A stretch of DNA of 64,000 nucleotides from a virus (IMGVR_UViG_3300017917_001176:13052-77051), one strand, 5' to 3'. Positions 11,139 to 29,622 are shown, counted from the stretch's first letter. The notes: a model not told the origin generated them from the letters alone. Translations and numbers: made by a program.

Positions 11139-11851
11139 ACAAACAACTCCTTGGGCAAATTACCATTCATCATTCTAATGCTGATCTGTTCTCGCTGTAC
11201 GTCAAATTTACCAAACTGAAAAACTCGTTCAGGAGTATCACCGTTCATTATGTACTTGGGTACTTCGTAACTCCACCGCCAGCTGTTCCAAATTGGATAT
11301 AACATTTTGATTTCATTGTTAACAAATCCGTAGTAGGAAACATCGTTCACTGGAAACAGATATAATCGAACGCCATCACGCCAGGTGTACTCTTTTGTTT
11401 TAGCATACAGTTGACTGAAACGATGTGCTGCCACTGCGGTTAACTGTGCAGGTGTTGCCTGCTGTTCTAGATTTGTATAGTAGATAAAATTATCATCTTC
11501 GTATTCAATTGGCGGCATGATATCAAATTCGTCACTGCGAGTGATCTGCTCAAAACGATTGATTATAAGAGCTCGCTGCTCGAGGTCCAGCGCATCACCA
11601 AACTCTGCTGGTAGTACTCTATTCCATCCAGACTGCATTCTAGCAAAGTATTCTGGATTGTGTTGATTGATTAAATGTATGTACTTGAATGTAAAATTAA
11701 TTGACCGTGGAACAATTACCTGCTGCGCTGTTCTAAAATGAAAATGATAATAACTGTTGTTGCGTTTGGCTTCCTCTACCGTTGCATCAGGTAACAAGGA
11801 AGCCAATTGTTCAAACGTTTGAACTAGAAAGTAATTGTCCTGATCAAACAT
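11135..11851 (-). CDS. hypothetical protein in modification cluster
   Basis: 238-aa ORF coupled to both neighbours. Confidence 0.65.
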   Translation of the reverse strand: MFDQDNYFLVQTFEQLASLLPDATVEEAKRNNSYYHFHFRTAQQVIVPRSINFTFKYIHLINQHNPEYFARMQSGWNRVLPAEFGDALDLEQRALIINRFEQITRSDEFDIMPPIEYEDDNFIYYTNLEQQATPAQLTAVAAHRFSQLYAKTKEYTWRDGVRLYLFPVNDVSYYGFVNNEIKMLYPIWNSWRWSYEVPKYIMNGDTPERVFQFGKFDVQREQISIRMMNGNLPKELFV

Positions 11852-13762: not shown

Positions 13763-14697
13763 TTTAAATTTTCTTTGGGAAAGTTGAACATATTCTCGCA
13801 TTTGCAGCAGTCCAACGGGCAAACTTCTTGTTGTATAAAATCCACTGCCTTGGGCATCAGCTTCCCAACCTTGCGTCCTGTACAGATATTTTCAATCTCT
13901 CCGTTTACACTGATTTCGTAAAACAACGGGGTACAGGTAAATCCTTTGAACCGATCGAATCGTTTCTCATAGATTTGAAAATCATTTAGATACTCTACTG
14001 TGCCATCGTTGAATTCATATTTATGAGTTAAATTGATGTGACTGGCTCTTTGCGACATGTCAGCAAATGACCAATCCAACTCAGACTGAAACAGCTCGTA
14101 AAATTCTTTGGAGTAGGCCGATGTCCAATGGCTAGTGTCTGACAGAATCTGCAAACTATAATTGACTCCATTTTCTTTCAGTAGTTTAATTCGTTCCAAC
14201 GTAACGGGCCAATGTTTGCTTTCGTCGCTCATGATCAGCGTGACAGAAAACTTTATGTACTGTGAGTCTTTGAGTGACAATGCTTTGTCTATAAACTTGT
14301 TGTCTACAAAGTCAGGGTGCAAGGATGCTGCAATTTCAACACCCGTTAACTCTGGCCTATCTAATTTTTTGTAATAGTTTAAACTGCGAGATAAGTTTGT
14401 AGCAACCAGTACACCTTTACAGTGCGGAATACTTTTTACTTCTAACAGTATGTCTGCCATCTTAGGATGCAGTGTAGGTTCACCGCCTACCATGTCTATT
14501 TCAAAATCTGTGTCTAATTTTTTCAATCTAGCCAGAGTGAACTTGTACTGGCTCATGCTGTCTTCGTGTTGCCAATTCTCTGTCATCTTGCCAGCACTGG
14601 CACAATAGTTACAGCTGAAGTTACACCAATTGGTTAGATACCAACTGAAGTGTATGGTTTTGTATTCAGGATTGCCTGCACGAATTATTGAGCGCAT
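13759..14697 (-). CDS. radical SAM enzyme (paralogue family A)
   Basis: CNFSCNYC, GGEPTLHP, TNLSR, SLHP, C-terminal C..C..CPLDCCKC; AAGGAGG RBS before ATG 14697. Confidence 0.9.
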   Translation of the reverse strand: MRSIIRAGNPEYKTIHFSWYLTNWCNFSCNYCASAGKMTENWQHEDSMSQYKFTLARLKKLDTDFEIDMVGGEPTLHPKMADILLEVKSIPHCKGVLVATNLSRSLNYYKKLDRPELTGVEIAASLHPDFVDNKFIDKALSLKDSQYIKFSVTLIMSDESKHWPVTLERIKLLKENGVNYSLQILSDTSHWTSAYSKEFYELFQSELDWSFADMSQRASHINLTHKYEFNDGTVEYLNDFQIYEKRFDRFKGFTCTPLFYEISVNGEIENICTGRKVGKLMPKAVDFIQQEVCPLDCCKCENMFNFPKENLK

Positions 14698-15590
14698 GGT
14701 GCCTCCTTGTAAAAATTCAGCATGCTTTCGCACACACAACAATCTCTAGGACAGCTGACCTTGCGCAGCAGTTGTTCCTGTTTTAAAAACAAACCATTGA
14801 ATCTTTGTCCTGTGCAGGTGTTGGCCACAGTGCCATCGAAGTATATTTCAAAGAACTGCGGAGTACAGGTGTACCCAGTTAGTCTGTGTAGGTTTTGATT
14901 GTACACTTCCAGACTGCTCAACTGCTGTGGTCCGCTATCAAACTCATATGAGAATCTAGCATCTGCTGGTGTCTCAAACTGTTGAAACAAAGCAAAACAT
15001 TCTGGCGTGTAATCGGGTGTCCAGTCTGTGCTTTCGTGTAACCAATGCAGTCCGTAGCTGATGTTGCGACTGGACAATTGTTCAATCAATTCCAGCGTGA
15101 CAGGCCAGTGTGCTGGGTCATCTGATATGTTCACACTCACGCGAATATTTAGATGCTGCATGCGATTAATGGCATCAGCTTTTTCTATAAAGTCTTGATT
15201 GTAATATTCAGGATGAAAACTAGCAGTCACAGTCATGCGACTCAATGACGCTTGATCCAAGTCTGAAAAGTAACTTAGTGGTCTGGATAGATTGGTGAAC
15301 AATTCAATTCGTTGGCAAAGCTCAATGCTGCACAGTTCAGTTAGTATCTCTGTCAACTGCGGATGCAGTGTAGGCTCGCCGCCTAGCAGTTCAATTTCAA
15401 AGGGTGCGTCAAACTTTTTCAGTTTGGTCAGTGTTAGTTTGTAGTTGCTTGAGCTTTGTTCTTTTTGCCATTTGTCTACCATGACCAATTGTTCATAGCA
15501 ATAGCTGCACTGGTAATTGCACCAATTGGTCAAGGTCCATGCAAAATGGAACTTGTTGTATTCAGGATTGCCTGCACGTAGTATCTGCAT
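14685..15590 (-). CDS. radical SAM enzyme (paralogue family A)
   Basis: CNYQCSYC, GGEPTLHP, TNLSR, SFHP, CPRDCCVC; start taken at MQILRAG. Confidence 0.9.
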   Translation of the reverse strand: MQILRAGNPEYNKFHFAWTLTNWCNYQCSYCYEQLVMVDKWQKEQSSSNYKLTLTKLKKFDAPFEIELLGGEPTLHPQLTEILTELCSIELCQRIELFTNLSRPLSYFSDLDQASLSRMTVTASFHPEYYNQDFIEKADAINRMQHLNIRVSVNISDDPAHWPVTLELIEQLSSRNISYGLHWLHESTDWTPDYTPECFALFQQFETPADARFSYEFDSGPQQLSSLEVYNQNLHRLTGYTCTPQFFEIYFDGTVANTCTGQRFNGLFLKQEQLLRKVSCPRDCCVCESMLNFYKEAPCAQ

Positions 15591-16345
15591 CACATCAAAA
15601 AGCACTTGTCATGGTTGCAAATACCATTGTGCTTTTCCCTATAGCAACAGTTGTACAGCTCTAAATTAGGACCATATAAAAAGTACTTGTCATTGTACAA
15701 ACATGGTTTGCCCCGCGGACTAAATTCTGGATCGTCCCAGAGCTCTGATCTATCTTTGCCCAATCGTTTGACTTCTTCAAAACGCACCAACTTTTGATAC
15801 GCAGGATCCTTGCGCATTTTATTGTACAACGCAGTAGACCAATTGCTCACTCCATCACCAAAGTCAGCGATAGGAGTCAGAAACACGTTCACATCAGGGT
15901 GTACCAACTCTTTGATTTTGAAATAGTAGATCAATGCTTCCTTGCCTGTGAACATAACATCAATGGTTCTTATGGTAGCTGTAACGCTGGACAGCACATC
16001 CATGAATTCTTCAACTGACACTTCAGTTGGATGCACACTGACCTGCAACAGGTACGGGTCTGTGATTGTTTTCATCACCCGAGCACTGTGCGCAGACAGG
16101 TTGGTTTGTATTACAAAAGGTATAGAAAACTCATTGAAGCATTGTATGATCCACTGAATGTCTGGATGAACAAATGGTTCGCCACCAAACACAAAAACTT
16201 CCACACCAGGGTATTGCTCTCCAAGGCCGCGCACAAAGTCACGCACCACATCACGATCCAGAACTGGATGTATGGTTTTATCTAGGTTCGTGCAATACAC
16301 ACATGAGTAATTGCACTTGAGTGTAATTTCCCATTCAACCTGCAT
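15590..16345 (-). CDS. radical SAM enzyme
   Basis: CNYSCVYC, GGEPFVHP, SVHP, C-terminal C..CC..C...C. Confidence 0.9.
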   Translation of the reverse strand: MQVEWEITLKCNYSCVYCTNLDKTIHPVLDRDVVRDFVRGLGEQYPGVEVFVFGGEPFVHPDIQWIIQCFNEFSIPFVIQTNLSAHSARVMKTITDPYLLQVSVHPTEVSVEEFMDVLSSVTATIRTIDVMFTGKEALIYYFKIKELVHPDVNVFLTPIADFGDGVSNWSTALYNKMRKDPAYQKLVRFEEVKRLGKDRSELWDDPEFSPRGKPCLYNDKYFLYGPNLELYNCCYREKHNGICNHDKCFLM

Positions 16346-17240
16346 CTTTTACCTTTAGCTGTTTGAGCAAGCCATCGCAGTTGCATGCCCGATGTGGACA
16401 TATCATTGGAACTGTTTTTGTAATGTTCTTAAAGAAGTCAGGTTGTTGCAATAGGTTAACGTGATTGCATTTATCTAAACAAAACTTAACCACGTTACCA
16501 TTGACATCAATTTCGTAATTGTTGTTATAGCAACTCCACCCTTGGAAATTGGTTAGTTTGTCACGGAACACTATGAAGTCATTGAACAACTGATCGTCGT
16601 ACACTAGATCCTTCTCATAGTGTTCAAGAAAAGCAAAGTATTCCCAGAAGTCCTTGCGATAGTTGAACAGTTTGCTGATACTGTTACCGTATAGAAAGTG
16701 CGGATGTATCTTGAGTCCATCTATACCCTCACAGATATCAAACATTTCTTTAATCAAAGGCCATAGCTTCTTATCATGATGCAACATGATGTTGACTTTG
16801 CACTGATACCCGCGACTGATCATTAACTTCATGTTGGCAATAAACCGTTCACGATTGGTACAGTCTGCAGGATGATAACTGAACAAAAAGGCCAACCCTG
16901 GATAGTCAGGATGATCTGTAAAATCTTTTTCTGCATTGGTTACCACGTACACACGATTGTATGTGGGCAACTGAGTTATCTGTTCCAGTATGTAATGATA
17001 GTATGGACCAAGAGTAGGCTCACCACCTAGCAGTCCTAGGTTAAAGCTCAGGCTACTGCGGCGCAAGGATTCCACAACACCATCAATGATTTCTTTGCTG
17101 CTCAACTTGCCCCATTCTTTACCGTATTCATTTCTAGCATAGCAGTAGGAACATTGCAGTTGACAAATGGTCAGGCTGTCCCAATGCACATTTATGTGAT
17201 CTGGGTTCTGCTGAATGTGATGTTGTCTACTGTAGTTCAT
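16335..17240 (-). CDS. radical SAM enzyme
   Basis: CQLQCSYC, GGEPT, SYHP, CPHRACNC; start taken at ATG 17240 (ATGA coupling). Confidence 0.9.
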   Translation of the reverse strand: MNYSRQHHIQQNPDHINVHWDSLTICQLQCSYCYARNEYGKEWGKLSSKEIIDGVVESLRRSSLSFNLGLLGGEPTLGPYYHYILEQITQLPTYNRVYVVTNAEKDFTDHPDYPGLAFLFSYHPADCTNRERFIANMKLMISRGYQCKVNIMLHHDKKLWPLIKEMFDICEGIDGLKIHPHFLYGNSISKLFNYRKDFWEYFAFLEHYEKDLVYDDQLFNDFIVFRDKLTNFQGWSCYNNNYEIDVNGNVVKFCLDKCNHVNLLQQPDFFKNITKTVPMICPHRACNCDGLLKQLKVKDAG

Positions 17241-18154
17241 AATTTCTTTTTTGGAAACTCTAATGTTTGTTTGCTCAAGCATACTTCACGTGGGCAGATT
17301 TCTTTTCTAACCAAATTGTTATCGCCCAAACTCAGTCCCACTTCTCTATTGGTACATAGATTAGTTATCACTCCTTCGCGGCTGATTGAGTAATAAACCG
17401 GAGTGCATTCATAACCCTGGAATTTATTCCAATGGTTTATTTCTATTTCGTGGTCTTTGAGCATGGCGTGGGTGCCATCTTCAAACTCCACTGGAATCTC
17501 AAAAGGATGATCTGTGTCATCAAAGTACTGCCCGAACCTCTCATGAAATTCTGATGTATAATTGGCAGTGAAGTTTTGATTGCTGATCAAGAGATTCAAA
17601 CGTGTTTTTACTTTTTTCTCCAGCAAACGCTCAATTACCAACTGTGTGCTATCCCAGGTGTCGGGTTGATCTTTAAGATTCAACTGTACCACAAACTCGC
17701 GACAGTGTTGATGCAGCTCAATGGCTTTTTCTAAAAACTTGTCCTTGTAGTACTCTGGATGATATGCTGCCATGATCAGCAACTTGTTTTCATTGAACTT
17801 GTTGAGCACGTTCAATGCTTCTACTTGTTTATAGAAGTCCACGCTGCGTGACAGGTTGGTCATCACTGCTATCTGTACACAGTTGTCTATAGCAGACATC
17901 TTGTTAACAATATCCAAGAACTGTGGGTGTAGTGTGGGCTCGCCACCGCTTAGGCACATCTGAAAGTTTCTTTGCACTGTGCCCAATCTAGCCAGGACCA
18001 TTTTGTAATCAGCATGTCTGGGCTGTGTGAAGTCATTGGTTACCACGTGCAGCACTGGACAATAGCTGCACTTGTAATTGCACCAGTCAGTCAGGTGCCA
18101 TGCAAATTCAATGCGTTGAAAGTTTGGATCGCCGCAGCTCTTAATTGGATTCAT
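17237..18154 (-). CDS. radical SAM enzyme (paralogue family A)
   Basis: CNYKCSYC, GGEPTLHP, TNLSR, AYHP, CPREVC. Confidence 0.9.
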   Translation of the reverse strand: MNPIKSCGDPNFQRIEFAWHLTDWCNYKCSYCPVLHVVTNDFTQPRHADYKMVLARLGTVQRNFQMCLSGGEPTLHPQFLDIVNKMSAIDNCVQIAVMTNLSRSVDFYKQVEALNVLNKFNENKLLIMAAYHPEYYKDKFLEKAIELHQHCREFVVQLNLKDQPDTWDSTQLVIERLLEKKVKTRLNLLISNQNFTANYTSEFHERFGQYFDDTDHPFEIPVEFEDGTHAMLKDHEIEINHWNKFQGYECTPVYYSISREGVITNLCTNREVGLSLGDNNLVRKEICPREVCLSKQTLEFPKKKL

Positions 18155-18800
18155 GTAAAAAGTCCATGGATGCTGTGGTGTTCACTGAGCTGTTGCTGTC
18201 CGGAAAGGATATGTTATCGCCACCGTCTGTGGTTTGAAAGTACAGTACCCGGTTAGTAGTGCGTATGAGTTTGCTACGTGCTGCTGAGTGCATGACCAGA
18301 GCAATGTCGTTGTGAATGTTGTTGTCCATTGGAAATGCGAAATCCACAATAGTACTCTTTTTAAATATATGCTGCCCCAATTGCAAACGCTCCAGATCCA
18401 GTTGCAGACAAAACTCTCGCGCATCAGTCCACAATTGCTCTTGGTGCATGCTCAAACATTTGACCCAATTTGGCTGTTGTGCTGGCATGTAATTGCCAAC
18501 TATGAGATCTGCGTTCAGCTCTAGCTTGTTAAAGAAGTCTGCAGACACATAGTCATCATCTTCAAGATAGTACACATACTCGCCTGTGGCCTGTTGCAAC
18601 AAAAATTCATATATCATGCTCAAGTTGTCAAACTTCTGATAATGGTACTGTACCCGGGCATGAGGTATTTCCACAATGTCGTTGCTGTCATTGTTCACAA
18701 TAACTTCAACGTCAGTAGGCAATTGTCTTAGCACACTGTTTAGACAACGTTGGAATAGATCAGGACGCTGATGCGTCAATATCAAAATGCTCAGTTTCAT
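18141..18800 (-). CDS. glycosyltransferase family 2
   Basis: LSILILT..R, ATGEYVYYLEDDD (DxD motif). Confidence 0.85.
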   Translation of the reverse strand: MKLSILILTHQRPDLFQRCLNSVLRQLPTDVEVIVNNDSNDIVEIPHARVQYHYQKFDNLSMIYEFLLQQATGEYVYYLEDDDYVSADFFNKLELNADLIVGNYMPAQQPNWVKCLSMHQEQLWTDAREFCLQLDLERLQLGQHIFKKSTIVDFAFPMDNNIHNDIALVMHSAARSKLIRTTNRVLYFQTTDGGDNISFPDSNSSVNTTASMDFLHESN

Positions 18801-19873
18801 TTGAAGTGATTCTTTCTATAGAAAGTCACTTGGGTGATCTTTTCGCCTTCTTCTGGAAACACTGGAACATTCTTTAGTTCGCGCTCTACACCATCGCAGA
18901 TGTAAAAATGTTTGCATTTCAAGCAGTCCACTTCTTTGCGATAGAATCGTACCCGGTGGTCCGCACAGTGATCGTGTGCAAACTTTAACTTCTCTTCTGT
19001 TGTGTACTCACGGCTTACATCAATCTTGACGCCACGCTCGTCAATGTACATTTCCTTGTTCCAGTCATACAGGTCGTAGATGTGTTGGTATTGATCACAC
19101 ACATACTGTTCGTAACCTTTCATGTAGCAGTAAGGAACATAGCGCACATTGATCAACATGTTCTTGTTCAAGAGGTCAATGCACTTTTTGATGTTGTCTG
19201 TCATGTCCTTGTAGCTGACATTGTCTGTGTCAATCTCCACTTGGTCCCAGTAGTTCAAGGTAATAAAGTTAACTTCCAATGGAGCAATATCATTGATCAG
19301 TTGTGCGTACACATTGTCCAACTGAAAGTAATTCTTGTAATATACTGTGCAGTTGATCCGTACAATCATGCCCAGTTCCTGTGCATTCTTGATACCTTGT
19401 AGAATACGTTTGAAACTGCCTTTGCGATTGGTAATGGCATCATGTGTTTCTGCTGTGCCACCGTGTAGACTGAACAGCACTTCTTTGAGTCCATGTGCTT
19501 GTGATTCTCTCAGGAACTCTATGTTGGCAAATTTGCCGCCATGGCTCAAACAACTCACATGCTCAAATCGTTCGTTACAGTAGTCCAGTATTTCAAACCA
19601 GTCTGGACTCACACTGCTTTCACCGCCGCTGAGATCCACTTGTGTGATCCCGTATGCTTTTAAATAGTCTGCTCGTTGCTTGACCACTTCCACCGGTGTC
19701 TTTACATCCAGCTGATCACGATAGTAACAGAACTCACAATCATAGTTGCAAAAGGTTCCTGTGTCTAGCTTGGCTCGATTACAACGAGGAGTTTGGTAAT
19801 CAATTTCAATGCCGTGCGTACTCAACTCATTCAATGAGTTAGCATTAGCGTTGAGTACTATTGGCATTTTCAT
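18797..19873 (-). CDS. radical SAM enzyme with PYC and C-terminal CxxCx5C motif
   Basis: CNYDCEFC, SGGE, FSLHG..AETHD.IT, VPYC, CLKCKHFYICDG. Confidence 0.9.
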   Translation of the reverse strand: MKMPIVLNANANSLNELSTHGIEIDYQTPRCNRAKLDTGTFCNYDCEFCYYRDQLDVKTPVEVVKQRADYLKAYGITQVDLSGGESSVSPDWFEILDYCNERFEHVSCLSHGGKFANIEFLRESQAHGLKEVLFSLHGGTAETHDAITNRKGSFKRILQGIKNAQELGMIVRINCTVYYKNYFQLDNVYAQLINDIAPLEVNFITLNYWDQVEIDTDNVSYKDMTDNIKKCIDLLNKNMLINVRYVPYCYMKGYEQYVCDQYQHIYDLYDWNKEMYIDERGVKIDVSREYTTEEKLKFAHDHCADHRVRFYRKEVDCLKCKHFYICDGVERELKNVPVFPEEGEKITQVTFYRKNHFK

Positions 19874-20793
19874 AATGCTTTAACCAATTCTAAAAAGTAA
19901 TCATTGTTGGTTAACAACAATGAATTCAGGTCCTGTGCTATTGCACGTTTTCTTGCTTCAATACCAGCGTCCACATAATCAATTTCATACTGCACCTGTT
20001 TGCCAAACACAGCGCATTCTACAATGAACCGAGGACTGCAATCAAATTGATTAGGAATCGCAGTATATATGTAGGTATCAAATCTGTTAAAAATATCCTG
20101 TACAGGCACCTGTGCCAGTGTTACATTGGGTGCAGTCAATGACTGATATAGATCAACATTGTTTGTGAGAATCAAATAGTTCTCGTGCTCTTTTCTATCA
20201 ATGATAGCCTGTATTGTGCGTGGATCCAGTCCACGACAGTTGGTAGTCAGATACAATAGTGCGGTGTTGGTTGCAACTGACTGCGGCTGTTGATACCGAT
20301 TCCATAATATCTTTTTGTTGTAGTCAACCACAGTGATGTCTAGATCGCAGTAGCGTTCGTCATACACATTAAAATCCTGTAACAACCAGGTGTGCTTGAT
20401 TGTTTTGTGTTGATGAAAATAATCAAACTCATATGCTGCACATCTTAATAGTATAACATGATCAGCATAGATTGTGCAAGAATCAAAACGTGGTGCTCCA
20501 TCAACTACACACAGAGCGTGAGTTATAATAACTTTGGGTTGAGCACACTCAATGGTATGAGTTGCAAACTGCTCCAGTTCGGGCTCAGTGAAGTTGTATT
20601 TGTCTTGAATTGCTTGTATCAGTGTTGTTTTGGTTGTACCATCTGATAACAGTATTGCACAGTTGATTTGATTTTGTCTGCACACATGAAAGTAGTCAAT
20701 CATTTCGTACAAATGACCAGACACCCCGTGAGTGTTTTCAAACGAGGTGGTGAAGACTAGATCATATTCTTTCAGTTGAAGGATCTTAGACAC
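19870..20793 (-). CDS. putative GT-B-fold glycosyltransferase-like protein
   Basis: N-terminal HGVSGH loop; C-terminal FDCSPRFIVECAVFGK resembles the GT-B donor-binding E-x7-E region. Confidence 0.45.
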   Translation of the reverse strand: MSKILQLKEYDLVFTTSFENTHGVSGHLYEMIDYFHVCRQNQINCAILLSDGTTKTTLIQAIQDKYNFTEPELEQFATHTIECAQPKVIITHALCVVDGAPRFDSCTIYADHVILLRCAAYEFDYFHQHKTIKHTWLLQDFNVYDERYCDLDITVVDYNKKILWNRYQQPQSVATNTALLYLTTNCRGLDPRTIQAIIDRKEHENYLILTNNVDLYQSLTAPNVTLAQVPVQDIFNRFDTYIYTAIPNQFDCSPRFIVECAVFGKQVQYEIDYVDAGIEARKRAIAQDLNSLLLTNNDYFLELVKAL

Positions 20794-20811
20794 AATGAAC
20801 TTACATTGCTG

Positions 20812-21918
20812 TTAAGCAGTAATTTCAGCGTAGGTTAATGGAGTATATCCTAATTCAGCAAAGATGTCTTTGGGTACGCGAGCAAGATCTTCTACTGTCA
20901 GGTTACCCTTCATTTGCAATGCGCCAGGACGCCATTGCTTTTTAAGAATCAGATCTTCAAGAGTAACATATATTAGATCTGTCATCTCTGGATTCCACTT
21001 GATCTCACCCGGAACATAGTCTTGGAATCTTCTGTTGAATGTGTCTACGTCTGCTGAGGTTGTTGGAGAAATTGGAATATGTACATCCTTCTCCCAGGCT
21101 GTTAGATACTGATTGCCACCTTCATTCATAGTAGGCGGACATTTGATATTACTACCGTTGAAGGTAAATGTTTTATCTCTTAAGATGTCTTCGTATCGTA
21201 CTGTTTGTACTCCAGGAGTATTCTTAAGAATCATTGCATTAAGAATAGAATAGTTCAGCTTGGTAGCATCATCTTCTCTGTTCTGAATTTCACCAGGCGG
21301 TACAGAATTTTCGTAATGGGCAGCAGATTTGGCATGCAATAAAGATACCACTGATGGATTACGAATGATGTTTAGTACCGAAACATTTTGCTCGCCTAGA
21401 TCTTGGCGCAAACGTTCAATAAAGAATCTACCAAACATGCCAGTGATGACTTGCACAGGGTATGTGCGTTTCTCATATTGTTTTAGTATGTGTTCGTAAT
21501 CGTGCGGAGTAGGTATATTGTACGTTAGATTGCGTTCTGGAAATGGTGCATCTACGTCTTTAATAAATCCATGGTCATACCATACGTCTGCAAATACATC
21601 GTAGTAGTGATTGGTACCAGTACCCCGTTGAAATAAGATGTCGCGAATCTTTTTTGCTTTATCAATGATATCAATTCGAGGACTCACGTTTTCAATTGTG
21701 TCTCCAGGAATAGCCAAACCTGCCAATGGATTACCCTCCATGTCAGTGTCTGAGCTTTCGTTTACTACCAGTCGTCCAGCTGGGTCATAGATTTTAAAAT
21801 TATTATCAGTAAAGTCAATGGTATATCCGCCCAGTACAAACGTGTTTAACTGCGCCAGCAGTTGACGGGCGAAAAACATTTTATTTACGGTTTCTGTTCC
21901 GCTTAGGACAACTAGCAT
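20812..21918 (-). CDS. P-loop/sulfotransferase-fold-like protein
   Basis: Degenerate N-terminal VVLSGTETVNK..AR.L, IIRNP and VRYEDIL. Confidence 0.4.
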   Translation of the reverse strand: MLVVLSGTETVNKMFFARQLLAQLNTFVLGGYTIDFTDNNFKIYDPAGRLVVNESSDTDMEGNPLAGLAIPGDTIENVSPRIDIIDKAKKIRDILFQRGTGTNHYYDVFADVWYDHGFIKDVDAPFPERNLTYNIPTPHDYEHILKQYEKRTYPVQVITGMFGRFFIERLRQDLGEQNVSVLNIIRNPSVVSLLHAKSAAHYENSVPPGEIQNREDDATKLNYSILNAMILKNTPGVQTVRYEDILRDKTFTFNGSNIKCPPTMNEGGNQYLTAWEKDVHIPISPTTSADVDTFNRRFQDYVPGEIKWNPEMTDLIYVTLEDLILKKQWRPGALQMKGNLTVEDLARVPKDIFAELGYTPLTYAEITA

Positions 21919-21920
21919 CC

Positions 21921-22322
21921 TTATCTCCTTAGGTACTCTTCTACTATGCTATTTACGCCGGCTTGATCATTATGATCTGCCAGTCTCTGTAGTTTAGTAA
22001 TAATATCTTGGTACTCTTGCTTTTTGTGTTCAATCTTTTTCATATTGTCAGCAAGAGTAATATAACGCTCTAGGTCAATGATCAGACTTTCGTCGCCCGA
22101 TTCGATAACTTTGATATAGCATTCTTCTCTGTTGTTATCGGTAATAAAAATACCTTTGCTGGCAAACTTGTTGTTCAATTGCATAAACGAAACAAAATCA
22201 AGCAAAGTAAAAATTAACAGCTCATCACCCATGATTCCACGAGCTTTGACTTTGACCGCTACTGCTGCTTTGCCTGCATAGGTGGTGCCATCAATTCCTT
22301 CTATTTCTTTTACTTCTTTCAT
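21921..22322 (-). CDS. small accessory protein downstream of the Cys-repeat protein
   Basis: 133-aa helical ORF, 1 nt from the neighbouring gene. Confidence 0.65.
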   Translation of the reverse strand: MKEVKEIEGIDGTTYAGKAAVAVKVKARGIMGDELLIFTLLDFVSFMQLNNKFASKGIFITDNNREECYIKVIESGDESLIIDLERYITLADNMKKIEHKKQEYQDIITKLQRLADHNDQAGVNSIVEEYLRR

Positions 22323-22323
22323 G

Positions 22324-22974
22324 TTATCCTTCGATCATGTTCACTGGTAGTTGAGAATAGTCAACAAAGTAATACCCACCGCGGTCGGTACCAAGTGCTG
22401 ACTCATATTTTGTTCCAAGTAGTTCTTGTGCAATTACACCAATATACTTTTTGTCTTTGTTCCACTTGTAGGTATATGAATACACATTCAAGTCACCTTC
22501 TGTACGCAGGAACTCAACATTGTCTTTTAGACGTTGGTCACTGTAGTTACAGTTACAGGTACAAGCATAGTTACAGTTACAGGTACAGTAGTTACAGTTA
22601 CAGGTACAGTAGTTACAGTTACACAAACACACTGCGCCAGCAGTTTTAACTTTCTGAATCATTGCATTAATATTAGCAGCGTACACAATACCATCTACGG
22701 CAACGTTGGTAAATCCTGCTGCGTATGGATAACTGCCAGTGGACAAATTTCCCTGCATGAGATTCAAATGTCTAGCAAGGATGTTTCCATCTGTGTACAC
22801 TGTTTGTACTGCTCTTGCGGCATTACCTCTGCGAGCAAGTTCAGAGTTTACAATTCCGGCCAACTCTGCCATCTTAGATGCTAGTACCCTGCTGTCAACT
22901 GCTGCATTAGCTGTTGTGTAGGTTACTGCATCGTTGATTGCAGTTCCACCTTGTTGTTCTGGTCCAATTGGCAT
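22324..22974 (-). CDS. Cys-repeat protein with C-terminal S74-type intramolecular chaperone; candidate radical SAM substrate / fibre protein
   Basis: CLCNCNYCTCNCNYCTCNCNYACTCNCNY immediately followed by SDQRLK..V, VYSYTYK, GVIAQEL and VDYSQL. Confidence 0.85.
   Translation of the reverse strand: MPIGPEQQGGTAINDAVTYTTANAAVDSRVLASKMAELAGIVNSELARRGNAARAVQTVYTDGNILARHLNLMQGNLSTGSYPYAAGFTNVAVDGIVYAANINAMIQKVKTAGAVCLCNCNYCTCNCNYCTCNCNYACTCNCNYSDQRLKDNVEFLRTEGDLNVYSYTYKWNKDKKYIGVIAQELLGTKYESALGTDRGGYYFVDYSQLPVNMIEG
22543..22629 (-). repeat. coding tandem repeat, 4 x 21 nt (one 3-nt insertion)
   Basis: Plus-strand unit gtagttacagttacaggtaca encodes CTCNCNY on the minus strand. Confidence 0.95.
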
Positions 22975-22986
22975 TTCTATTTCCTT

Positions 22987-23370
22987 TTAAATTTCTTTTT
23001 TAAGAAAATCTAAACTGTCAGCTGCTTTGGTCTGCGCTAAAAACTTTTCGTAGTCGTCTAGATCTGATGTAATAAATTCCAAGGTGGCTGCGTCTGGCAC
23101 TTTAGTACTCAAAATTTCAGTTTCGGTCTGCAAGGAATTGGTTAGAATATGACTGACCAATTGCTCTAGGTCGTATCCCAGTGCCTTGGACACAAAGTCA
23201 ACCTGCTGTGTGAGATCCACTGTTTCGCGTTTGCCAGCTTCTGCAACTGCTTGAATGGTATTCACTGTGATGCCAAATCCTTCTAGTAGCAGCGCACCAA
23301 CAGTTGGATCCTCATCGCTGATCTCTTTGATAAGTGCATAAATTTGTTCGATTTTTTCAACGATAGTCAT
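22987..23370 (-). CDS. small acidic accessory protein
   Basis: 127-aa ORF between the Cys-repeat gene and a radical SAM gene. Confidence 0.65.
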   Translation of the reverse strand: MTIVEKIEQIYALIKEISDEDPTVGALLLEGFGITVNTIQAVAEAGKRETVDLTQQVDFVSKALGYDLEQLVSHILTNSLQTETEILSTKVPDAATLEFITSDLDDYEKFLAQTKAADSLDFLKKEI

Positions 23371-24266
23371 GTTAGTTCCTTGTCTTTAAAGTCATGAAAT
23401 TTTGGAGAGTTTTCGTAATTCTCGTACGTTGTGACATTACCTTCGTCCGTATAATACGTTTTGAGCTCTTTTCTTTCACCACAACCACTGCACATGTCGC
23501 AGAAAAGCTCGCAAACAGGCGTGGATATAGTCTTATTTATCCAGTCCTGACGCAGCAGCTTTTTTGCATCTTGCAGCTTTTGCATGTCTTCGGGCTGTAG
23601 TGTGCTCCAGGCCACGCTGGTGATCAGGCGCCCTGGGCGGAATGTTTTAATAACACGAGTCATGTCTTCATACAGGTGATTTATGTTGCCCTGCTGTATG
23701 GTATATCTAATGCGGAATTTTACTCCGTTTTTTAACAGATTGCGAAACACCTGTATCATCATAGGAGTGGACTCTGTTCCAGCATGTGTTACTCTGTCCT
23801 GATTACCAATACCGTCAAAACTAACATCAATGCTCAACAGTCCACGCTGGTAGAAAAACGTGTTTTTAACTTCGTCAATAAACCGCTGACTTAGGAATTT
23901 GATGCCATTGGTTTCCAAATTAAAATGCACATTGTTCTTTTTATTGTATGCGTATTCCATTGCATAGCACACGTTCTCCCATTCCAATGTGGCTTCGCCG
24001 CCAAACAGTACAATCAATGTTTGGTTATCTGGATTTTCTCTAGCCAGTATCGAATCAATGGAGTCTCGTATGTTTTGCTTTGATAGTATCTGCGGAGGCC
24101 GACCTGGCAAATCCTCGTAGCAGTAGGTACACGCCAAATTGCACTTGTTGGTAAAGTATAGAACATTAACGCCAGATCCTGCGGGTGTAGGAAGATCTGT
24201 TTTATCGCCTACATAAAAGTTTAGGCCAGGGTTCGCACCAACAAAGGATCCAACAATCTGACTCAT
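23367..24266 (-). CDS. radical SAM enzyme, peptide-maturase-like, short C-terminal Cys cluster
   Basis: CNLACTYC, FGGE, TNG, SFDG, CELFCDMCSGC. Confidence 0.9.
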   Translation of the reverse strand: MSQIVGSFVGANPGLNFYVGDKTDLPTPAGSGVNVLYFTNKCNLACTYCYEDLPGRPPQILSKQNIRDSIDSILARENPDNQTLIVLFGGEATLEWENVCYAMEYAYNKKNNVHFNLETNGIKFLSQRFIDEVKNTFFYQRGLLSIDVSFDGIGNQDRVTHAGTESTPMMIQVFRNLLKNGVKFRIRYTIQQGNINHLYEDMTRVIKTFRPGRLITSVAWSTLQPEDMQKLQDAKKLLRQDWINKTISTPVCELFCDMCSGCGERKELKTYYTDEGNVTTYENYENSPKFHDFKDKELT

Positions 24267-24583
24267 TGTATAATCATCTTATGTTTGTTTTTGTATCGCT
24301 CTTCTTCACGCATGGCTTTTGCTTGTTTGATTATATGACTCATGTTTTCTAAAAAACGCACATAGTCATATTTGTAGTCAAACAGATGTCCACGCTCGTC
24401 GAGTTCAAAGCCAACATACTGACTGTCTACCTTGGCTTTACCTTTACGTGCTTCATCAATCTGCGCTTGTAACTCTTCTGTGGTTAACACTCGATTGCTT
24501 GCATGCTCAACAGGCTGCATCTCAACCTTGATAGGTACAGCAATAATACTCTTAAAAGATTTTTTTGGTTTTAGTTCCGACAT
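24263..24583 (-). CDS. small accessory protein
   Basis: 106-aa ORF coupled between two radical SAM genes. Confidence 0.6.
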   Translation of the reverse strand: MSELKPKKSFKSIIAVPIKVEMQPVEHASNRVLTTEELQAQIDEARKGKAKVDSQYVGFELDERGHLFDYKYDYVRFLENMSHIIKQAKAMREEERYKNKHKMIIQ

Positions 24584-25695
24584 TCCACACCCTCGTTTTC
24601 TACACCAACGTTTTCAATGTAATGCAATATCAAGTCTTGGAACAATGGTTCATCGCGGCATTCTTCAACCACACGCATGGCCTGTTCATAATAGATATGA
24701 AACAGTTCGCAGATACTGTCCAATGGCTTGTTATCATTCATAACCTGACTATAGGTACAGCCTGCATTACATACCTGCTTGAGATCGCAAGGCTCGCACT
24801 TGTCATAGCTGCCTGGATTGAAAATCTTTTGATAGTACTTGAAGTCGTATGCTTCGTCCATCTTCATGATCTTCTTGCTGGCAAAACGAGCACAGGGATA
24901 AAACTCTCCTGAACTCATTAGCACACCGCCATTGGTTCCTGCGAAGCAACCAAACTGTCGCTTGCCTTTGACCAAGCCGTATAGAATATCTAGTATGGCC
25001 AATCTTAAAAATCCAACACTGCACGGAACGCCTTCTTTGATCTTCTTGATCCAGAATGTTGCTAGACGTTCGCATTCATAGCGGAATTCAACAATGTCTT
25101 CTCTGGTCCATACGTCATCTCTTACGATAGAGAAGTCAGGATGCTCGATGCCCCAGCTTAATAGGAACTCAAAGTTCTCTACCATGTCCTTGGTGTTGCC
25201 AGGCCAAATCATCACCTTGCATCCGTTGGTAAGACCAGTGATCAATTCCTTCTTGTAATTGTACATGTCCAGAATACCGTCAAACAGTTCACCTGTTTCT
25301 GGATTGGTATTTTCCAACAGCGGCAACAAAGGTCGTGTTTCGTTAGAGCTCATACCGTCAAAGCTCCAACTAACACCCACACCGTTTTCTCTAAGATAAG
25401 TGGCTTTTTCCTCATCAATCATGGTGAGGTTGGTAATGATGTTAATACCCTTACACTTTTTGTCTGCTCTGAGTTTAGGTACTGCATGTTTGATCAAATC
25501 AAAGTTCAACAGCGGCTCGCCACCAAAGAAACTCACGTGATACTCTGCATCACCTGATCGTAACATCAGCTTGTGCAGATCCACTAGACCTTTGTCAAAT
25601 ATTTCGTTGGTCATCCAAGTAGGACGGTTGGCCACATAACAATACGGGCAACCTAAATTACATTTTTCTGTTACGCTTACTTCTAGAGTGAACAT
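24571..25695 (-). CDS. radical SAM/SPASM peptide-maturase-like enzyme
   Basis: CNLGCPYC, FFGGEPLL, SFDG; SPASM CFAG..G.FYPC..CEPC....CNAGC...C. Confidence 0.92.
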   Translation of the reverse strand: MFTLEVSVTEKCNLGCPYCYVANRPTWMTNEIFDKGLVDLHKLMLRSGDAEYHVSFFGGEPLLNFDLIKHAVPKLRADKKCKGINIITNLTMIDEEKATYLRENGVGVSWSFDGMSSNETRPLLPLLENTNPETGELFDGILDMYNYKKELITGLTNGCKVMIWPGNTKDMVENFEFLLSWGIEHPDFSIVRDDVWTREDIVEFRYECERLATFWIKKIKEGVPCSVGFLRLAILDILYGLVKGKRQFGCFAGTNGGVLMSSGEFYPCARFASKKIMKMDEAYDFKYYQKIFNPGSYDKCEPCDLKQVCNAGCTYSQVMNDNKPLDSICELFHIYYEQAMRVVEECRDEPLFQDLILHYIENVGVENEGVECRN

Positions 25696-26789
25696 TGCTC
25701 TGCCTCAAATTTAATCACTGGCTTTTTATAACTCTTGAGTGCAGTACGCAGTGCATGATGAACGATCTCATTGCTTTTGAATACTTTGCAAACCTGCCAG
25801 TTACTGGTGTGGTCGCTCCACTTCTCAAGGTATGTATCTTTCTCAGACTTTTCATATGTGGCTGCATTACATTTCATACAGAACTGACTGTCGCAGCTAA
25901 TACAGTCCAGCGGCTGATTCTTCAGCGCATCTCTGTACATGTCTGTTTTTTCTTTAATCAGTGCATCTAGGTCTGGTGCCTTAAAGATGTTGCCAATCAC
26001 GTGTGCATGAGATTCTTTGTACATACAACCGTGGCAAGGACTGATATCGCCATTCAAGTCTACGCTGATATAGTTGATACCAGATGCACACAAGGCACGA
26101 CTTTGTGTGAACCAACCAAACTTTTCCGGAGGCAGTTTGTTTACATAGATGTACTTGGCAATCTTGGTCAAGCCTTCTTTAAGCACTTCCAGGCGCGGCA
26201 TGAACTCTTCTTCAGTTAACTGTGAGTACATGTCGGGTGTTGGAAAGTAGTTTTCGTCTAGTTCAATTACATCAAGAAACGCTTCGTAGATCAAATGAAA
26301 GTGTTCTGCTGTGAGTACGCTTTTCATGCGCACGTTCAAGCCTGCTTGCTTGGCAGCAAGGTAGTTTGATTTAACCAATGTAGAACTTGGATTGCCTGCC
26401 TTGTCAATACGAGTAATATCGTTTACTGGCTTGCCATCATAGCTGACCTGAATATTCAAACGATTTGGCATAGCTTCGTGCAAACGCACTAGATCCTTAA
26501 GATACTTTTTCAAGTATACGCCATTGGTGTAAAAGAAAAAGCTGTAGTTGGTGTCGTCTTTGTATTTCTCCATTACGCCACGGCAGAAGTCATAGTTAAC
26601 AAATGGCTCGCCGCCCCAGAAGTAAATATCCTTCTTGGGATCGCTGATTTTGTTCATGAACTCTTCGATGTTTTCCAAGGTTACTTCTGTGTTTTCCTCG
26701 TATGCTGTGCTCAGACCGCACTCAAATCCTTCTGAACAGTAGGTGCAAGCTAGATTGCAAGTACTGGTTACATTAATATCAATTACCAT
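25683..26789 (-). CDS. radical SAM/SPASM peptide-maturase-like enzyme
   Basis: CNLACTYC, WGGEP, TNG, SYDG; CASG..GDISPCHGC..CISC...CMKC...C. Confidence 0.92.
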   Translation of the reverse strand: MVIDINVTSTCNLACTYCSEGFECGLSTAYEENTEVTLENIEEFMNKISDPKKDIYFWGGEPFVNYDFCRGVMEKYKDDTNYSFFFYTNGVYLKKYLKDLVRLHEAMPNRLNIQVSYDGKPVNDITRIDKAGNPSSTLVKSNYLAAKQAGLNVRMKSVLTAEHFHLIYEAFLDVIELDENYFPTPDMYSQLTEEEFMPRLEVLKEGLTKIAKYIYVNKLPPEKFGWFTQSRALCASGINYISVDLNGDISPCHGCMYKESHAHVIGNIFKAPDLDALIKEKTDMYRDALKNQPLDCISCDSQFCMKCNAATYEKSEKDTYLEKWSDHTSNWQVCKVFKSNEIVHHALRTALKSYKKPVIKFEAEQCSL

Positions 26790-27516
26790 TTCTATACCCT
26801 TTGTTAAGTTCTAATACGGTGTCCAACAATGCTAGTTTGTATTTATGGGTTAAAGCCTGCGTGTCTTTGGGCAAGCAAGGGCCGCCAAATCCTCGCTGGC
26901 CGTCTGGCCCAGGAACTGCAAAGTGATGTGAACCCATCCACGGATGCGTGGACAAAATCTCTGCCGCAGTAGCATAATCTGCACCCATATCCTGGGCAAC
27001 ATCATAAATGGAATTCATGTATGTTACTTTGAGCGCATAGAATGTATTCATTGTGTATTTTATAAGAGATGCCGTGGGAATGTCAACCAAATAACAGTTT
27101 GATGTGTCCACAGTTGATTCTCTAGCATACAGATCCAGCAGCTCTTGCCCACGCCGGCCGCCAATGATCAGGTATTCTGGATTAACAAAATCCTCTAGAG
27201 AAGTGCTGCGAGTTAAAAACTCTGGGTTGTACAGCACATCAAACCCTGCGAGATGCTCTGGCAGCACTGTGCTTTTGACCACCACTAGACCTGTGTAGTT
27301 GGAGTCTTTGATTTCTTGTAAAACTGATTTGAGCAGTGCGTAGTCTGTGCCATCCGAGGGTGTAGGAACGCACACAAAGATTGCATCCAGCTCCATTTTG
27401 CAAAGGTGCTTGACGCTTACTGTGTTATATTTAGGGTCTGAGTAAAATACTTGAGTTTTGGAAAAGCCGTGTTTGACGGCTCTTCCAACCATGCCGTAGC
27501 CAATAATTCCGATCAT
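26779..27516 (-). CDS. ugd: UDP-glucose/GDP-mannose 6-dehydrogenase (short form)
   Basis: GYGMVG, CVPTP, KST, NPEFL, KY..N.F.A.K, GFGGPCLPKD. Confidence 0.88.
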   Translation of the reverse strand: MIGIIGYGMVGRAVKHGFSKTQVFYSDPKYNTVSVKHLCKMELDAIFVCVPTPSDGTDYALLKSVLQEIKDSNYTGLVVVKSTVLPEHLAGFDVLYNPEFLTRSTSLEDFVNPEYLIIGGRRGQELLDLYARESTVDTSNCYLVDIPTASLIKYTMNTFYALKVTYMNSIYDVAQDMGADYATAAEILSTHPWMGSHHFAVPGPDGQRGFGGPCLPKDTQALTHKYKLALLDTVLELNKGYRNGN

Positions 27517-27552: not shown

Positions 27553-29622
27553 TTATCTAACCTGAACTACGGACATTACCAATGCTTCTTCGGCAGTTTC
27601 TTTGTTTTCTAGTGCGCGACCAAGTACATTGAATGCAGTTGCTTCGCCATCAGCAGCAGCACGAGCACATCCGTTGCCAGCTGATACCAATCGCTGTCCT
27701 TTGGTTACTTGTCCTACCACACGAACATTAACACGACCAGTTAGTGCAATAGGTGGATGTGTGTCATTGTCTCCTGCACCTTCATTCATCAGGTACGCAA
27801 AGTTATGACTTACTACACCAAACACTGTTTCGCTGGCATCTGTGTTTTCTTGTGTGACTTCGTGTGTGCCACCAATAGTAACCACAGTTCCTTCTGGGTA
27901 CGCAGCATCAGCAGCAAAACGTTCTGCCAAGTCAGCGTATGTTGCACGGAAGGTTGCGCCCGATGCCAATTGCCATGTACCAGTAACAATACTGGTACTC
28001 AAGCCTGAGTGAATACCTTTAACGTAAGCATTACCAAACATCTGTGCGCTGCTACCAATGTCACCTGTTCCGCTGGTGCCACCTTTAACCACACTGTGAA
28101 CGTTTGCAGCAGTCACATACACAGTACCAAATCGCATGTCTGGCTGGCCAATATCACCAATACCTGGGGTTGTGCCAGATGTTGCGCCATGCACAATACT
28201 GTGTACGTTGGCTGTGTTGGCGTAGAAATCTCTAAAGCGGTTGCCTTCGTTAGCTAGGTCACGAATGTTGTTTTGGTCAGGTGCTAGTACACCCAAGATA
28301 CTGGAAGTACCGTCACGTAACAATGATCCGGTGCTCAATGTGCCCAGTGTGCTTTGAATTGATCTAACGTTAGAGAACATACTGGCTGTTGCAGCAGGTG
28401 CAATACCAGGATTACTCAACACGTTGGCATGAATAGCAGCAACGTTGGCCCACAGTGCAACCACGTTGGCTGCAAAGTTTTGACCAGAATTCATAATCTG
28501 ATTCCACTGAGTGCTGTTGCCCAACAATGAACCAGCTGTGTAAATGCCCAACTCGCTTTGTAGTACACGAACGTTACCGTACACTGAATTGGTGTTTGCT
28601 GTCAACGCAGTGATAGATGAGTTGATAGTGTTGGTGTTAGACGCAATAAAACCTTTGATAGCATTATCAGCAGTATCCACATAACCTTTGGTAGCAATAC
28701 CAAGTACGCCAGTTGGGTCTGCGTTCACTGTGATCAAGCCAGTGTTTCTATCAACAGTTAATACGTTAACGGAAGTACCGCCTGCATTTTCTGGTTTGGT
28801 TGCAATAATAAAACCATTGCCGCGATATACGCTGGACAGTGTTAGGTTGTTGTCGTTAACACTGATTTCTGCATAATCAATTGTACCACCAGTTTCTGTA
28901 ATCTTGATACCGTCAGTGTTCTGAATTTCAATCTGCGCATCAACCACTGGTGTGGTTTTGGTTAGATAGTTTGCTGCAAGAATACCGCCTAGGTAAGAGG
29001 TGTTGTTTGCATTCTCATAGTACACCAGAGCTGGAATACGATCAGTTGCTAGGTTGAAACCTGGCTTGACTGTTAGGAATCCTGGAATAGCAGGGCTTGG
29101 AGTAAACGCTGTGTCCTTGCTTAGAATAGCAACCAAGTTGTTCTGTACAAAGAACTTAACAACCACGTGGCTAACCAAGCCGCTGTCAATAATGGTGTCA
29201 GCAATCGCGCCTGACGTACCAGTGGTGGCAGTAAAGCTAGGACCAATAACAATCCAGCTTGCGCCTGAATATGTTTTCAACTGTTGATTAACTGTGTCAA
29301 ACCACAAGTCGCCTGCAATGGCATTGCTTGGGGCATCGCTGGTGCTTTGTGCTCCAGAGATAGTTTTCCAGTTACCAAACTTGTCGTATACCTGTAGTAA
29401 ACGAGTATCAGTTCTCCACCAAAGTTGTCCGACAATTGGGTTCAGTGGCGCCGATGACGATGCAAAGTTTTCTAGCAGTCGTATAAAGTTCTCATTAAGG
29501 AACGTGCCATAACCAGCATAGTTTTTCCCAATCAGTGTCAAGCTACTAGCAGAACTGTTGGTTTGTCCATCTGCTACTGTAGCTAACGGTGTTCCATCCG
29601 TTTTAATAATGTTATAACTCAT
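27553..29622 (-). CDS. tail fibre/appendage protein with C-terminal G2-type (ADLAE) autochaperone domain
   Basis: N-terminal virion anchor shared with 29659..32073; ATKGYVD fibre motif; C-terminal YADLAERF..GVVS..IALTGRV.V.V.G. Confidence 0.75.
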   Translation of the reverse strand: MSYNIIKTDGTPLATVADGQTNSSASSLTLIGKNYAGYGTFLNENFIRLLENFASSSAPLNPIVGQLWWRTDTRLLQVYDKFGNWKTISGAQSTSDAPSNAIAGDLWFDTVNQQLKTYSGASWIVIGPSFTATTGTSGAIADTIIDSGLVSHVVVKFFVQNNLVAILSKDTAFTPSPAIPGFLTVKPGFNLATDRIPALVYYENANNTSYLGGILAANYLTKTTPVVDAQIEIQNTDGIKITETGGTIDYAEISVNDNNLTLSSVYRGNGFIIATKPENAGGTSVNVLTVDRNTGLITVNADPTGVLGIATKGYVDTADNAIKGFIASNTNTINSSITALTANTNSVYGNVRVLQSELGIYTAGSLLGNSTQWNQIMNSGQNFAANVVALWANVAAIHANVLSNPGIAPAATASMFSNVRSIQSTLGTLSTGSLLRDGTSSILGVLAPDQNNIRDLANEGNRFRDFYANTANVHSIVHGATSGTTPGIGDIGQPDMRFGTVYVTAANVHSVVKGGTSGTGDIGSSAQMFGNAYVKGIHSGLSTSIVTGTWQLASGATFRATYADLAERFAADAAYPEGTVVTIGGTHEVTQENTDASETVFGVVSHNFAYLMNEGAGDNDTHPPIALTGRVNVRVVGQVTKGQRLVSAGNGCARAAADGEATAFNVLGRALENKETAEEALVMSVVQVR

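Follow-up and report, generated by a model that had tools for sequence, protein, structure and literature searches.

In this study we analysed a stretch of viral DNA of 64,000 nucleotides (IMGVR_UViG_3300017917_001176:13052-77051), referred to as the window, which comes from a 77-kb IMG/VR virus record with a CheckV completeness of 17%. T4-type baseplate genes are present in the window, including gp6-like (phrog_10646, E 2e-288), gp25-like and gp5-like genes, and near these and the tail-fibre-like genes lies an open reading frame (ORF) on the minus strand (22324..22974) that encodes a protein of 216 amino acid residues, designated CYS. It is composed of an N-terminal domain, four cysteine-rich heptads and a Peptidase_S74 domain, and it is single-copy in the 77-kb record. 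CYS sits in a 20-kb minus-strand block together with ten radical S-adenosylmethionine (SAM) genes, all with the CX3CX2C motif, and the same block contains genes for a GT2 glycosyltransferase, a UDP-glucose dehydrogenase-like protein, epimerases and a PIG-L deacetylase, as well as split transketolase-like genes and a flavin halogenase-like gene.

The heptad array and the CYS family

The array occupies residues 116-144 (22543..22629, minus strand) and has the form (C-x-C-N-C-N-Y)x4, that is, CLCNCNY, CTCNCNY, CTCNCNY and, after an extra Ala, CTCNCNY; it is the proposed modification site. Translation of the ORF agreed exactly with the original prediction, made from the sequence alone, of 12 Cys in 29 residues ending at SDQRLK, and the residues S145-D-Q-R-L-K150 follow the array directly on its C-terminal side. 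At the DNA level, Tandem Repeats Finder placed 3.7 copies of a 21-bp unit at 22543-22623. The other frames of the window contain at most 10 Cys per 29 residues, and such dense stretches are non-coding and aperiodic. Each heptad holds two C-x-x-N motifs (C1..N4 and C3..N6), and in a strand the alternation of C1, C3 and C5 would bring every Cys to the same face.

A search of 5.8 billion proteins (E<=1e-3) gave 652 matches to CYS, nearly all of which are unnamed metagenomic proteins, on contigs of up to 376 kb, and the best of them had E values of 1e-139 to 1e-47. Among the 120 best homologues, C1, C3 and C5 are conserved at 100%, T2 at 76%, N4 at 93% (otherwise D or Q), N6 at 95% and Y7 at 98%, while the N-terminal domain is about 45-55% identical to the query across the same aligned proteins. 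Four heptads are present in 103 of the 120, one extra residue (mostly S or A) precedes the last heptad in 118, and 90 have no Cys outside the array. The array terminates at the S74 Ser in all 120, with the S..K spacing in 115 and an extra Ser before SD.RLK in the other five. Moreover, the codons of the heptads drift synonymously between loci (TGT/TGC, AAC/AAT at about 1:1, TAT/TAC, ACT/ACA/ACC), which argues for selection on the peptide and not on a DNA repeat. Protein-level conservation together with this drift rules out chance or a DNA-repeat artefact as the origin of the heptads. Every heptad position is thus under very strong selection, and this constraint exceeds the needs of a structural stalk alone.

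In some loci there are 2-4 tandem CYS paralogues, the number of heptads ranges from 3 to 28, and one relative has 90 Cys within 346 residues; by analogy, such tandems and variable heptad numbers resemble the precursor arrays of peptides that are synthesized ribosomally and modified post-translationally (RiPPs). Relatives of more than 378 residues are rare (26, against more than 650 of near length), which rules out the tip of a long tail fibre as the usual form of CYS. A bacterial origin was ruled out as well, since the heptad motif was found in only 4 of 185,579 species genomes, each time on a contig of a metagenome-assembled genome (MAG). The four MAG contigs come from unrelated phyla; three of them have the phage-type cassette of CYS and the radical SAM genes rS1-3 described below, two of these also with the small gene b133, and the fourth (L031) has no partner gene. 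A tblastn search of a phage collection matched only the S74 part (Roseobacter phage CRP-235), and a 13-kb megablast query against the phage collection gave no match. In one locus (L051:10638-11100) the CYS gene is broken at the repeat, with N-domain and S74 pieces in different frames and the heptads gone. The probable cause is that the 21-bp repeat collapsed during assembly, which calls for caution with metagenomic counts of the family.

The N-terminal domain (residues 1-115; 22630..22974, minus strand) consists of three helices with conserved E45/R48/R49 and A99/N103 motifs, according to an AlphaFold2 (AF2) model and the alignment. In the AF2 monomer model of CYS, built on a 70-sequence alignment, residues 20-115 are confidently helical with a predicted local distance difference test (pLDDT) score of about 90, the S74 part scores above 90, and the heptads score only 33-39. 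The low score of the heptads fits either an enzyme substrate or a fold that forms only in the oligomer. Foldseek with the whole model gave no convincing match (E>0.4), and the best hits in VIA were unrelated helical proteins (Z 5.7), with a weak match to MyRF ICA at Z 3.6. The N-terminal domain is weakly conserved in sequence; alone it had 3 matches at E<=1e-3 among 1.8 billion representatives, and thus no other domain context could be learned from it.

Linkage of CYS with radical SAM genes

Three radical SAM genes, rS1, rS2 and rS3, are located 0.4-4 kb upstream of CYS. rS1 (25683..26789, minus strand; 368 residues) matches Pfam Radical_SAM and scores 21.4 bits against SPASM, just under the cut-off of 21.5; its best NCBIfam models are the PapB, nif11, SCIFF, DynA and CXXX-repeat maturases, each under its cut-off. 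rS2 (24571..25695, minus strand; 374 residues), the best-conserved gene of the cassette, contains both CX3CX2C and the seven-Cys SPASM signature (C..G....C, CX2CX5CX3C, C), and C12/C16/C19, C250, G253, C268, C300/C303/C309/C313 and C329 are invariant in 18 diverse homologues. Its top-ranked family is the PapB-family model NF047865, matched over nearly the full length with 125.7 bits (E 2e-36), which is below the cut-off of 340. The top rank and the near end-to-end coverage suggest that rS2 is PapB-type in its working, not a member of the PapB family. rS3 (23367..24266, minus strand; 299 residues) is a radical SAM protein with a C-terminal CX3CX2CX2C (twitch-like) cluster motif. In 26 related loci, rS1, rS2 and rS3 were found 24, 22 and 21 times, respectively. 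Taken together, the best family matches of the three are thioether-forming maturases of peptides or proteins (PapB, nif11-type, CcpM, SCIFF, QhpD and the CXXX-repeat family).

The linkage was followed in both directions. Homologues of rS1-3 occur within about 5 kb in 25 of 27 viral loci that had been retrieved with the CYS protein. In the close clade the order is rS1-rS2-(a106)-rS3-(a127)-CYS-b133-b368-b307-rS4-GT2-rS6-rS7-x299-rS10, and in distant clades, where CYS is 26-40% identical, it is TF-rS2-rS3-rS1-CYS-b133; departures are confined to contig-edge cases and Campylobacter phages. In the reciprocal test, loci were retrieved by rS2 alone and scored for a gene with at least 3 heptads within 8 kb. 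Such a gene was found in 21 of 23 loci at an rS2 identity of at least 70%, 12 of 14 at 45-70%, 16 of 22 at 33-45%, and 1 of 19 below 33%, which gives 33 of 37 at 45% or more. The misses at high identity have truncated flanks or, in L051, the gene broken at the repeat. Altogether, CYS genes stand beside radical-SAM/SPASM enzymes across more than 60 distinct viral contigs, and a co-located maturase of this kind is also a hallmark of RiPP loci of the ranthipeptide/sactipeptide type. The original prediction had called the array RiPP-like without citing these enzymes; the tight reciprocal linkage to maturase-like genes speaks for that part of the claim, while the carrier is a protein with a folded N-terminal domain and not a peptide.

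The most distant relatives of rS2 adjoin other short-period repeats of Cys with Asn, Asp and sometimes His, such as CHSN/CHSD tetrads, CTCNVD units and C-x-[NDE] triads, and the CHSN/CHSD tetrad protein shares the N-domain motif of CYS. Across all of these loci, the constant element is a SPASM radical SAM gene next to a periodic array of Cys and Asn/Asp. Repeat variants were noted at five loci near rS2 relatives (L093:12576-13076, L097:10334-11119, L090:10430-10894, L062:5898-6488 and L078:11418-12509), with CHSN/CHSD tetrads, CRSN/CICD/CACN units, CTCNVD units, twelve copies of CPCNC[ND]F, and CICDCNH[AD] octads. The octad protein has 86 Cys in 364 residues, and several of the variant proteins carry the N-domain motif (..E..RRG..).

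Cultured phages with related genes were reached through phrog_26958, which leads to the Campylobacter phages CP220, CPt10, CP21 and IBB_35. Their heptad protein gp145/CPT_0180 (CPt10_1891) has 534 residues with 6-7 C-[TL]-C-[DN]-C-N-Y heptads and lacks S74; at 2.3 kb downstream of gp145 there is a SPASM radical SAM gene. It resembles the window's system in its heptads, the 21-bp intragenic repeat, the nearby SPASM gene and the T4-like myovirus background, and the genomes of these Firehammerviruses are likewise rich in radical SAM genes and encode a UDP-glucose dehydrogenase. It differs in its length, in a Cys-rich C-terminal extension of 200 residues in place of S74, and in that the genes are scattered and do not form one cassette. 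The 11-12 radical SAM genes and the 21-bp intragenic repeat were both reported in 2010 by Timms et al., who did not connect them (PMC2853527). In IBB_35, gene 3-9 is the CYS orthologue (1605 bp, matching reverse-complement coordinates in HM246722, 92% nucleotide identity), and its product is among the virion proteins identified by mass spectrometry, with 2.6% coverage (PMC3322345 supplement). The heptad orthologue is labelled 'putative N-acetylneuraminate pyruvate lyase' in NC_019507.1 (74991-76595, CP21_105) and OP654737.1 (20183-21745); a Pfam scan of the CPt10 orthologue found no family and hence no support for this label. A second type of Cys repeat, C-x-[N/D/E], is present in the CP220/CP21 group (L082:15842-16210; L083:15834-16349 and 16417-17073). 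These Firehammervirus proteins contain 27-61 Cys in 123-219 residues, about 7 kb downstream of an rS2-like SPASM gene, and may be another class of substrate.

The S74 domain in fused, split and absent form

The C-terminal part of CYS (residues 145-216 plus the stop codon; 22324..22542, minus strand) is a Peptidase_S74 intramolecular chaperone, with the predicted scissile bond Y144|S145 at nucleotides 22542/22543, the dyad S145/K150, and R148. As had been predicted, the Pfam profile (PF13884) recognizes it with 29.7 bits (cut-off 22, E 7.8e-7) over residues 145-185, corresponding to profile positions 1-49 of 58, and S145, D146, R148, L149 and K150 are invariant in all 70 aligned homologues. Known S74 domains use a catalytic Ser with Lys at +5 and Arg at +3, as in endoNF (S911/K916) and MyRF (S587/K592) (PMC8326128), and the S74 of CYS has the same Ser/Lys(+5) dyad and Arg(+3). 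A sequence search of the PDB returned just one weak alignment (E 0.46), to the GA-1 neck appendage chaperone 3gud, from its SDERHK. Similar to the S74 domains of K1F endosialidase, T5 pb1, GA-1 gp12 and MyRF ICA, that of CYS begins with SD.R.K, forms the C-terminal end immediately behind a short-period repeat, and is predicted to cut on the N-side of the Ser. It is much shorter than the chaperone of T5 pb1 (72 versus 133 residues), the modelled domain stops after the beta part, and it does not have the C-terminal coiled coil that drives trimerisation in MyRF (PMC8326128). In addition, its client is a 29-residue Cys repeat on a protein of 144 residues and not a long spike.

The C-termini of the family were sorted into three forms. 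In the first, which includes CYS of the window, an S74 domain of 65-79 residues is fused to the array. In the second, the protein ends with a tail of 12 residues, SD.(R/Q/E)(L/V)K..(I/V).Y(M/I/L/F), followed by a stop codon. After this tail, a gene with its own Shine-Dalgarno sequence and ATG encodes the remaining S74 in L012, L013, L019, L023 and L032 (L012:10564-10842, L013:10518-10790, L019:10406-10714, L023:10531-10824 and L032:2751-3047), and this free body ends in a coiled-coil-like stretch. The four free bodies that were scanned (L012, L013, L019 and L023) match positions 16-57 of the Pfam S74 profile with 22-38 bits. A programmed frameshift or readthrough was ruled out as the cause of the split, since the second ORF is provided with these start signals of its own. 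With a hidden Markov model of the S74 body, a free ORF was found in most loci with 12-residue tails and in none of the loci with solely fused or bare CYS genes; L030, whose CYS has a different tail of 31 residues, has a free body ORF too. It is known for MyRF ICA that the scissile segment forms a 'cable' threading the beta 'donut' of the neighbouring subunit and that cleavage needs the trimer (PMC8326128). In the light of this structure, the 12-residue tail can be read as a cable that would be served in trans.

In the third form the gene ends with ...CNCNY or ...CNCNYS, in phages with an rS2 72-86% identical to that of the window. Thus, the end that cleavage is predicted to leave on CYS of the window is likely the functional C-terminus, and S74 is dispensable for the system. 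This fits the expectation of the original prediction that ...CNCNY becomes the free C-terminus, as the genes of these relatives stop right there or one Ser later. Its other idea, that the precursor carries protease and folding catalyst as a follower domain, overstated the role of S74, for the domain is fused, split or absent even in close relatives. S74 is thus a helper and not a defining part, and known S74 proteins differ from the CYS family in that a 12-residue cable with a separate gene, or no S74 at all, also occurs in the latter.

Interpretation of the cassette and its remaining genes

The position of CYS genes beside cysteine-cross-linking-type radical-SAM/SPASM enzymes on so many contigs suggests that CYS is probably an enzymatically modified virion protein of an undescribed sort. 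On balance, we favour the view that it is a fibre-like protein of the virion on whose heptads the neighbouring SPASM radical SAM enzymes install a modification, most plausibly Cys-to-Asn/Asp thioethers, and which is assembled and trimmed to ...CNCNY by S74. In detail, CYS would serve a T4-like myovirus as a small structural protein, similar to a fibre or whisker, and its heptads would be the substrate of rS1, rS2, rS3 and perhaps further downstream enzymes, with radical Cys-to-Asn/Asp thioether cross-links of the ranthionine or sactionine type as the most likely chemistry. The modification would be of the RiPP type and placed on a protein, not on a leader/core peptide. S74 would assemble CYS, most likely as a trimer, and the Ser145/Lys150 dyad would cut Tyr144|Ser145, leaving a mature protein of about 15 kDa that ends with ...CNCNY. 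We put forward more tentatively, as a possibility that falls somewhat short of the former view, that phages staple a virion protein by RiPP chemistry, in which a battery of radical-SAM/SPASM enzymes yields a thioether-cross-linked (possibly metal-loaded) tip and S74, whether fused, split or discarded, exposes the C-terminus.

Several points weigh against such a modification. It is deduced from genes, none of the enzymes scores up to the curated cut-off of a characterized maturase family, and neither the enzymes nor the small neighbouring proteins yielded a RiPP recognition element (RRE) or PqqD-like domain. The N-terminal domain is modelled as folded, unlike a typical leader. Detection in the IBB_35 virion rests on 2.6% sequence coverage, and the Campylobacter phages have just one SPASM gene near the heptad gene. 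Moreover, thioethers from i to i+3 fit poorly with the extended strands of the triple beta-helices that S74 usually serves, and therefore 'cross-linked' and 'beta-helical stalk' may exclude each other. Repeats of Cys, His, Asp and Asn also look like a metal-binding array.

The main alternative, which we regard as unlikely, is that the Cys ladder stays unmodified. In this case S74 would fold the heptads into a short trimeric stalk of the beta-helical type, in which the Cys (together with Asn and Tyr) would pack in the core or act as ligands of Fe, Zn or an Fe-S-like cluster; the nearby radical SAM genes would serve other chemistry, for example on sugars or cofactors, with the GT2, UDP-glucose dehydrogenase and epimerase genes. 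The His-x-His ladder of T4 gp37, which binds iron, is a precedent for such a metal-binding repeat. The alternation of C1, C3 and C5 on one strand face fits this idea, as do the use of His and Asp, classic metal ligands, in related repeats and the presence of sugar-pathway genes within the cassette. S74 normally follows stacked short-repeat triple beta-helices, with cleavage coupled to trimer formation (PMC8326128), and a C-terminal annulus of cysteines is functional in the P22 tailspike (PMC3357383). However, the minimal cassette in distant phages consists of rS1-3 and CYS, sometimes with b133, and has no sugar genes; the reciprocal linkage is very tight; and the enzymes look like maturases of peptides and not like radical SAM proteins that modify sugars. 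It is also difficult to explain by a ladder why outward-facing positions are as conserved as inward-facing ones and why close relatives have no S74 at all. The modification that we favour and an unmodified ladder may be partly combinable.

Two further explanations fit the data poorly. A diffusible RiPP, in which the N-terminal domain is a removed leader and the modified Cys peptide of 29 residues is set free to act as a toxin, signal or metallophore, would account for the maturase-like enzymes and for a gene order, paralogue arrays and variable repeat number like those of RiPP clusters, but we consider it improbable, as the family scans and locus comparison found no protease or exporter conserved in the cassette, the N-terminal domain is a confident fold, S74 is a domain of fibres and spikes, and the gene stands among tail and baseplate genes and has a virion-associated orthologue. 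At 216 residues, CYS is also not a short precursor with a disordered, removed leader and a released peptide, and a folded virion protein of about 15 kDa with a modified repeat is the more likely product than a leader/core peptide natural product. Least probable of all is an Fe-S or iron reservoir or scaffold that supplies the ten radical SAM enzymes of the cassette during infection, since the extreme Cys density beside many Fe-S enzymes is offset by the virion association, by the lack of similarity to the IscU, NfuA and SufA families, and by the fact that it gives no role to S74 processing or to the conserved ...CNCNY end.

Among known systems, the nearest biochemical precedent for the cassette is CrpA/CrpC of Methanococcus voltae, in which a Cys-rich repeat is located at the C-terminus of a sizeable protein whose gene lies beside a SPASM radical SAM gene. 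CrpC, a SPASM radical SAM enzyme, installs ranthionine links on the C-x-x-Q/D repeats of the 29-kDa CrpA (PMC13692751). The C-x-x-(Q/D) acceptors of CrpA are comparable to the C-x-x-N/D of CYS, and we count as a further likeness that CrpA binds to its enzyme through the N-terminal part and that the product remains a protein. CrpA is a cellular protein of an archaeon, with 17-residue repeats, one enzyme that has an RRE, and no S74, whereas CYS is viral, with 7-residue repeats of three Cys each, at least 3 enzymes without a detectable RRE and a predicted C-terminal self-processing. Ranthipeptide and sactipeptide systems (PapA/PapB, SCIFF/CteB, the CXXX-repeat family and CefB with Cys at every fifth position) likewise combine periodic Cys with radical SAM/SPASM maturases. 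CYS differs from them in enzyme scores far below the cut-offs, in a 216-residue substrate with a folded N-terminal domain, in having no leader protease or exporter, and in its context of phage structural genes. Full-text literature searches turned up no account of the heptad family or of its association with radical SAM genes, in agreement with the earlier remark that the layout is not one recognized among RiPP classes. S74 chaperones, SPASM maturases and protein-level ranthionines are known singly; their combination in a widespread phage cassette, the heptad motif and the naturally split S74 appear to be undescribed.

If the linkage is that of enzyme and substrate, viruses would use RiPP-type radical chemistry on their own particle proteins, in very many environmental and gut phages. 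This would provide a new class of protein cross-links for study and the first enzymatically cross-linked viral structural protein of such a kind, and it would explain in functional terms the 11-12 radical SAM genes of the Campylobacter phages, puzzling since 2010, and those of many environmental myoviruses. The Campylobacter phages with these genes can be cultured, and the fused, split and absent forms of S74 offer a natural series for dissecting a chaperone and autoprotease in cis versus in trans. Enzymes acting on a simple seven-residue motif might also be of use in peptide stapling.

The remaining genes of the cassette are on the minus strand as well. Between rS2 and rS3 lies a106 (24263..24583), a small conserved protein without Cys, present in 13 loci and with no family above threshold. 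Directly upstream of CYS lies a127 (22987..23370), an acidic protein of 127 residues confined to the close clade (11 loci), with no Pfam or PHROG match. Directly downstream lies b133 (21921..22322; phrog_25260), the most widely conserved non-enzyme partner of CYS, which is found in 18 loci including distant clades and MAG contigs. The AF2 model of b133 is all helical (pLDDT 90.6), and it had no fold match in a structure search and no match in the ESM Atlas. The second half of the cassette (11851..21918), as annotated with Pfam and NCBIfam, comprises b368, b307, rS4 (AlbA-like radical SAM), the GT2 glycosyltransferase, rS5-rS9, x299 and rS10, and its gene order is kept in L001-L009, L022 and L024. 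Six short radical SAM genes without clear SPASM, rS5-rS10, lie at 11851-18154, of which rS5, rS8 and rS9 are paralogues with 33-42% identity. x299 (12923-13822; 299 residues) belongs to no family and shows 64-80% identity across most loci of the close clade.

At the head of the cassette there is a UDP-glucose/GDP-mannose dehydrogenase-like gene (26779..27516; Pfam), found in 10 loci, and a UDP-glucose dehydrogenase gene adjoins a radical SAM gene in Campylobacter phage IBB_35 too. Just upstream of the cassette lies the tail-fibre-like TF689 (27553..29622, minus strand; 13 loci), which matches PHROG virion structural and fibre families. Its C-terminus has a weak Peptidase_G2 IMC autoproteolytic match (20.3 bits, below cut-off), which would be a second, different self-cleaving chaperone beside the cassette. 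Between the baseplate and tail-fibre genes, a single ORF of 6190 residues spans 33670-52242 (minus strand). At the far end of the cassette, a flavin-dependent Trp-halogenase-like gene (9217-10488, minus strand; Pfam E 1.4e-64) has homologues of 59% identity in the corresponding position of L004, L007 and L008. It is flanked by two genes for the N- and C-terminal halves of a transketolase/DXP-synthase-like protein (8757-9236 and 10419-11138, minus strand), and homologues of these split genes are present in L004, L005, L007, L008, L013 and the Campylobacter phages.

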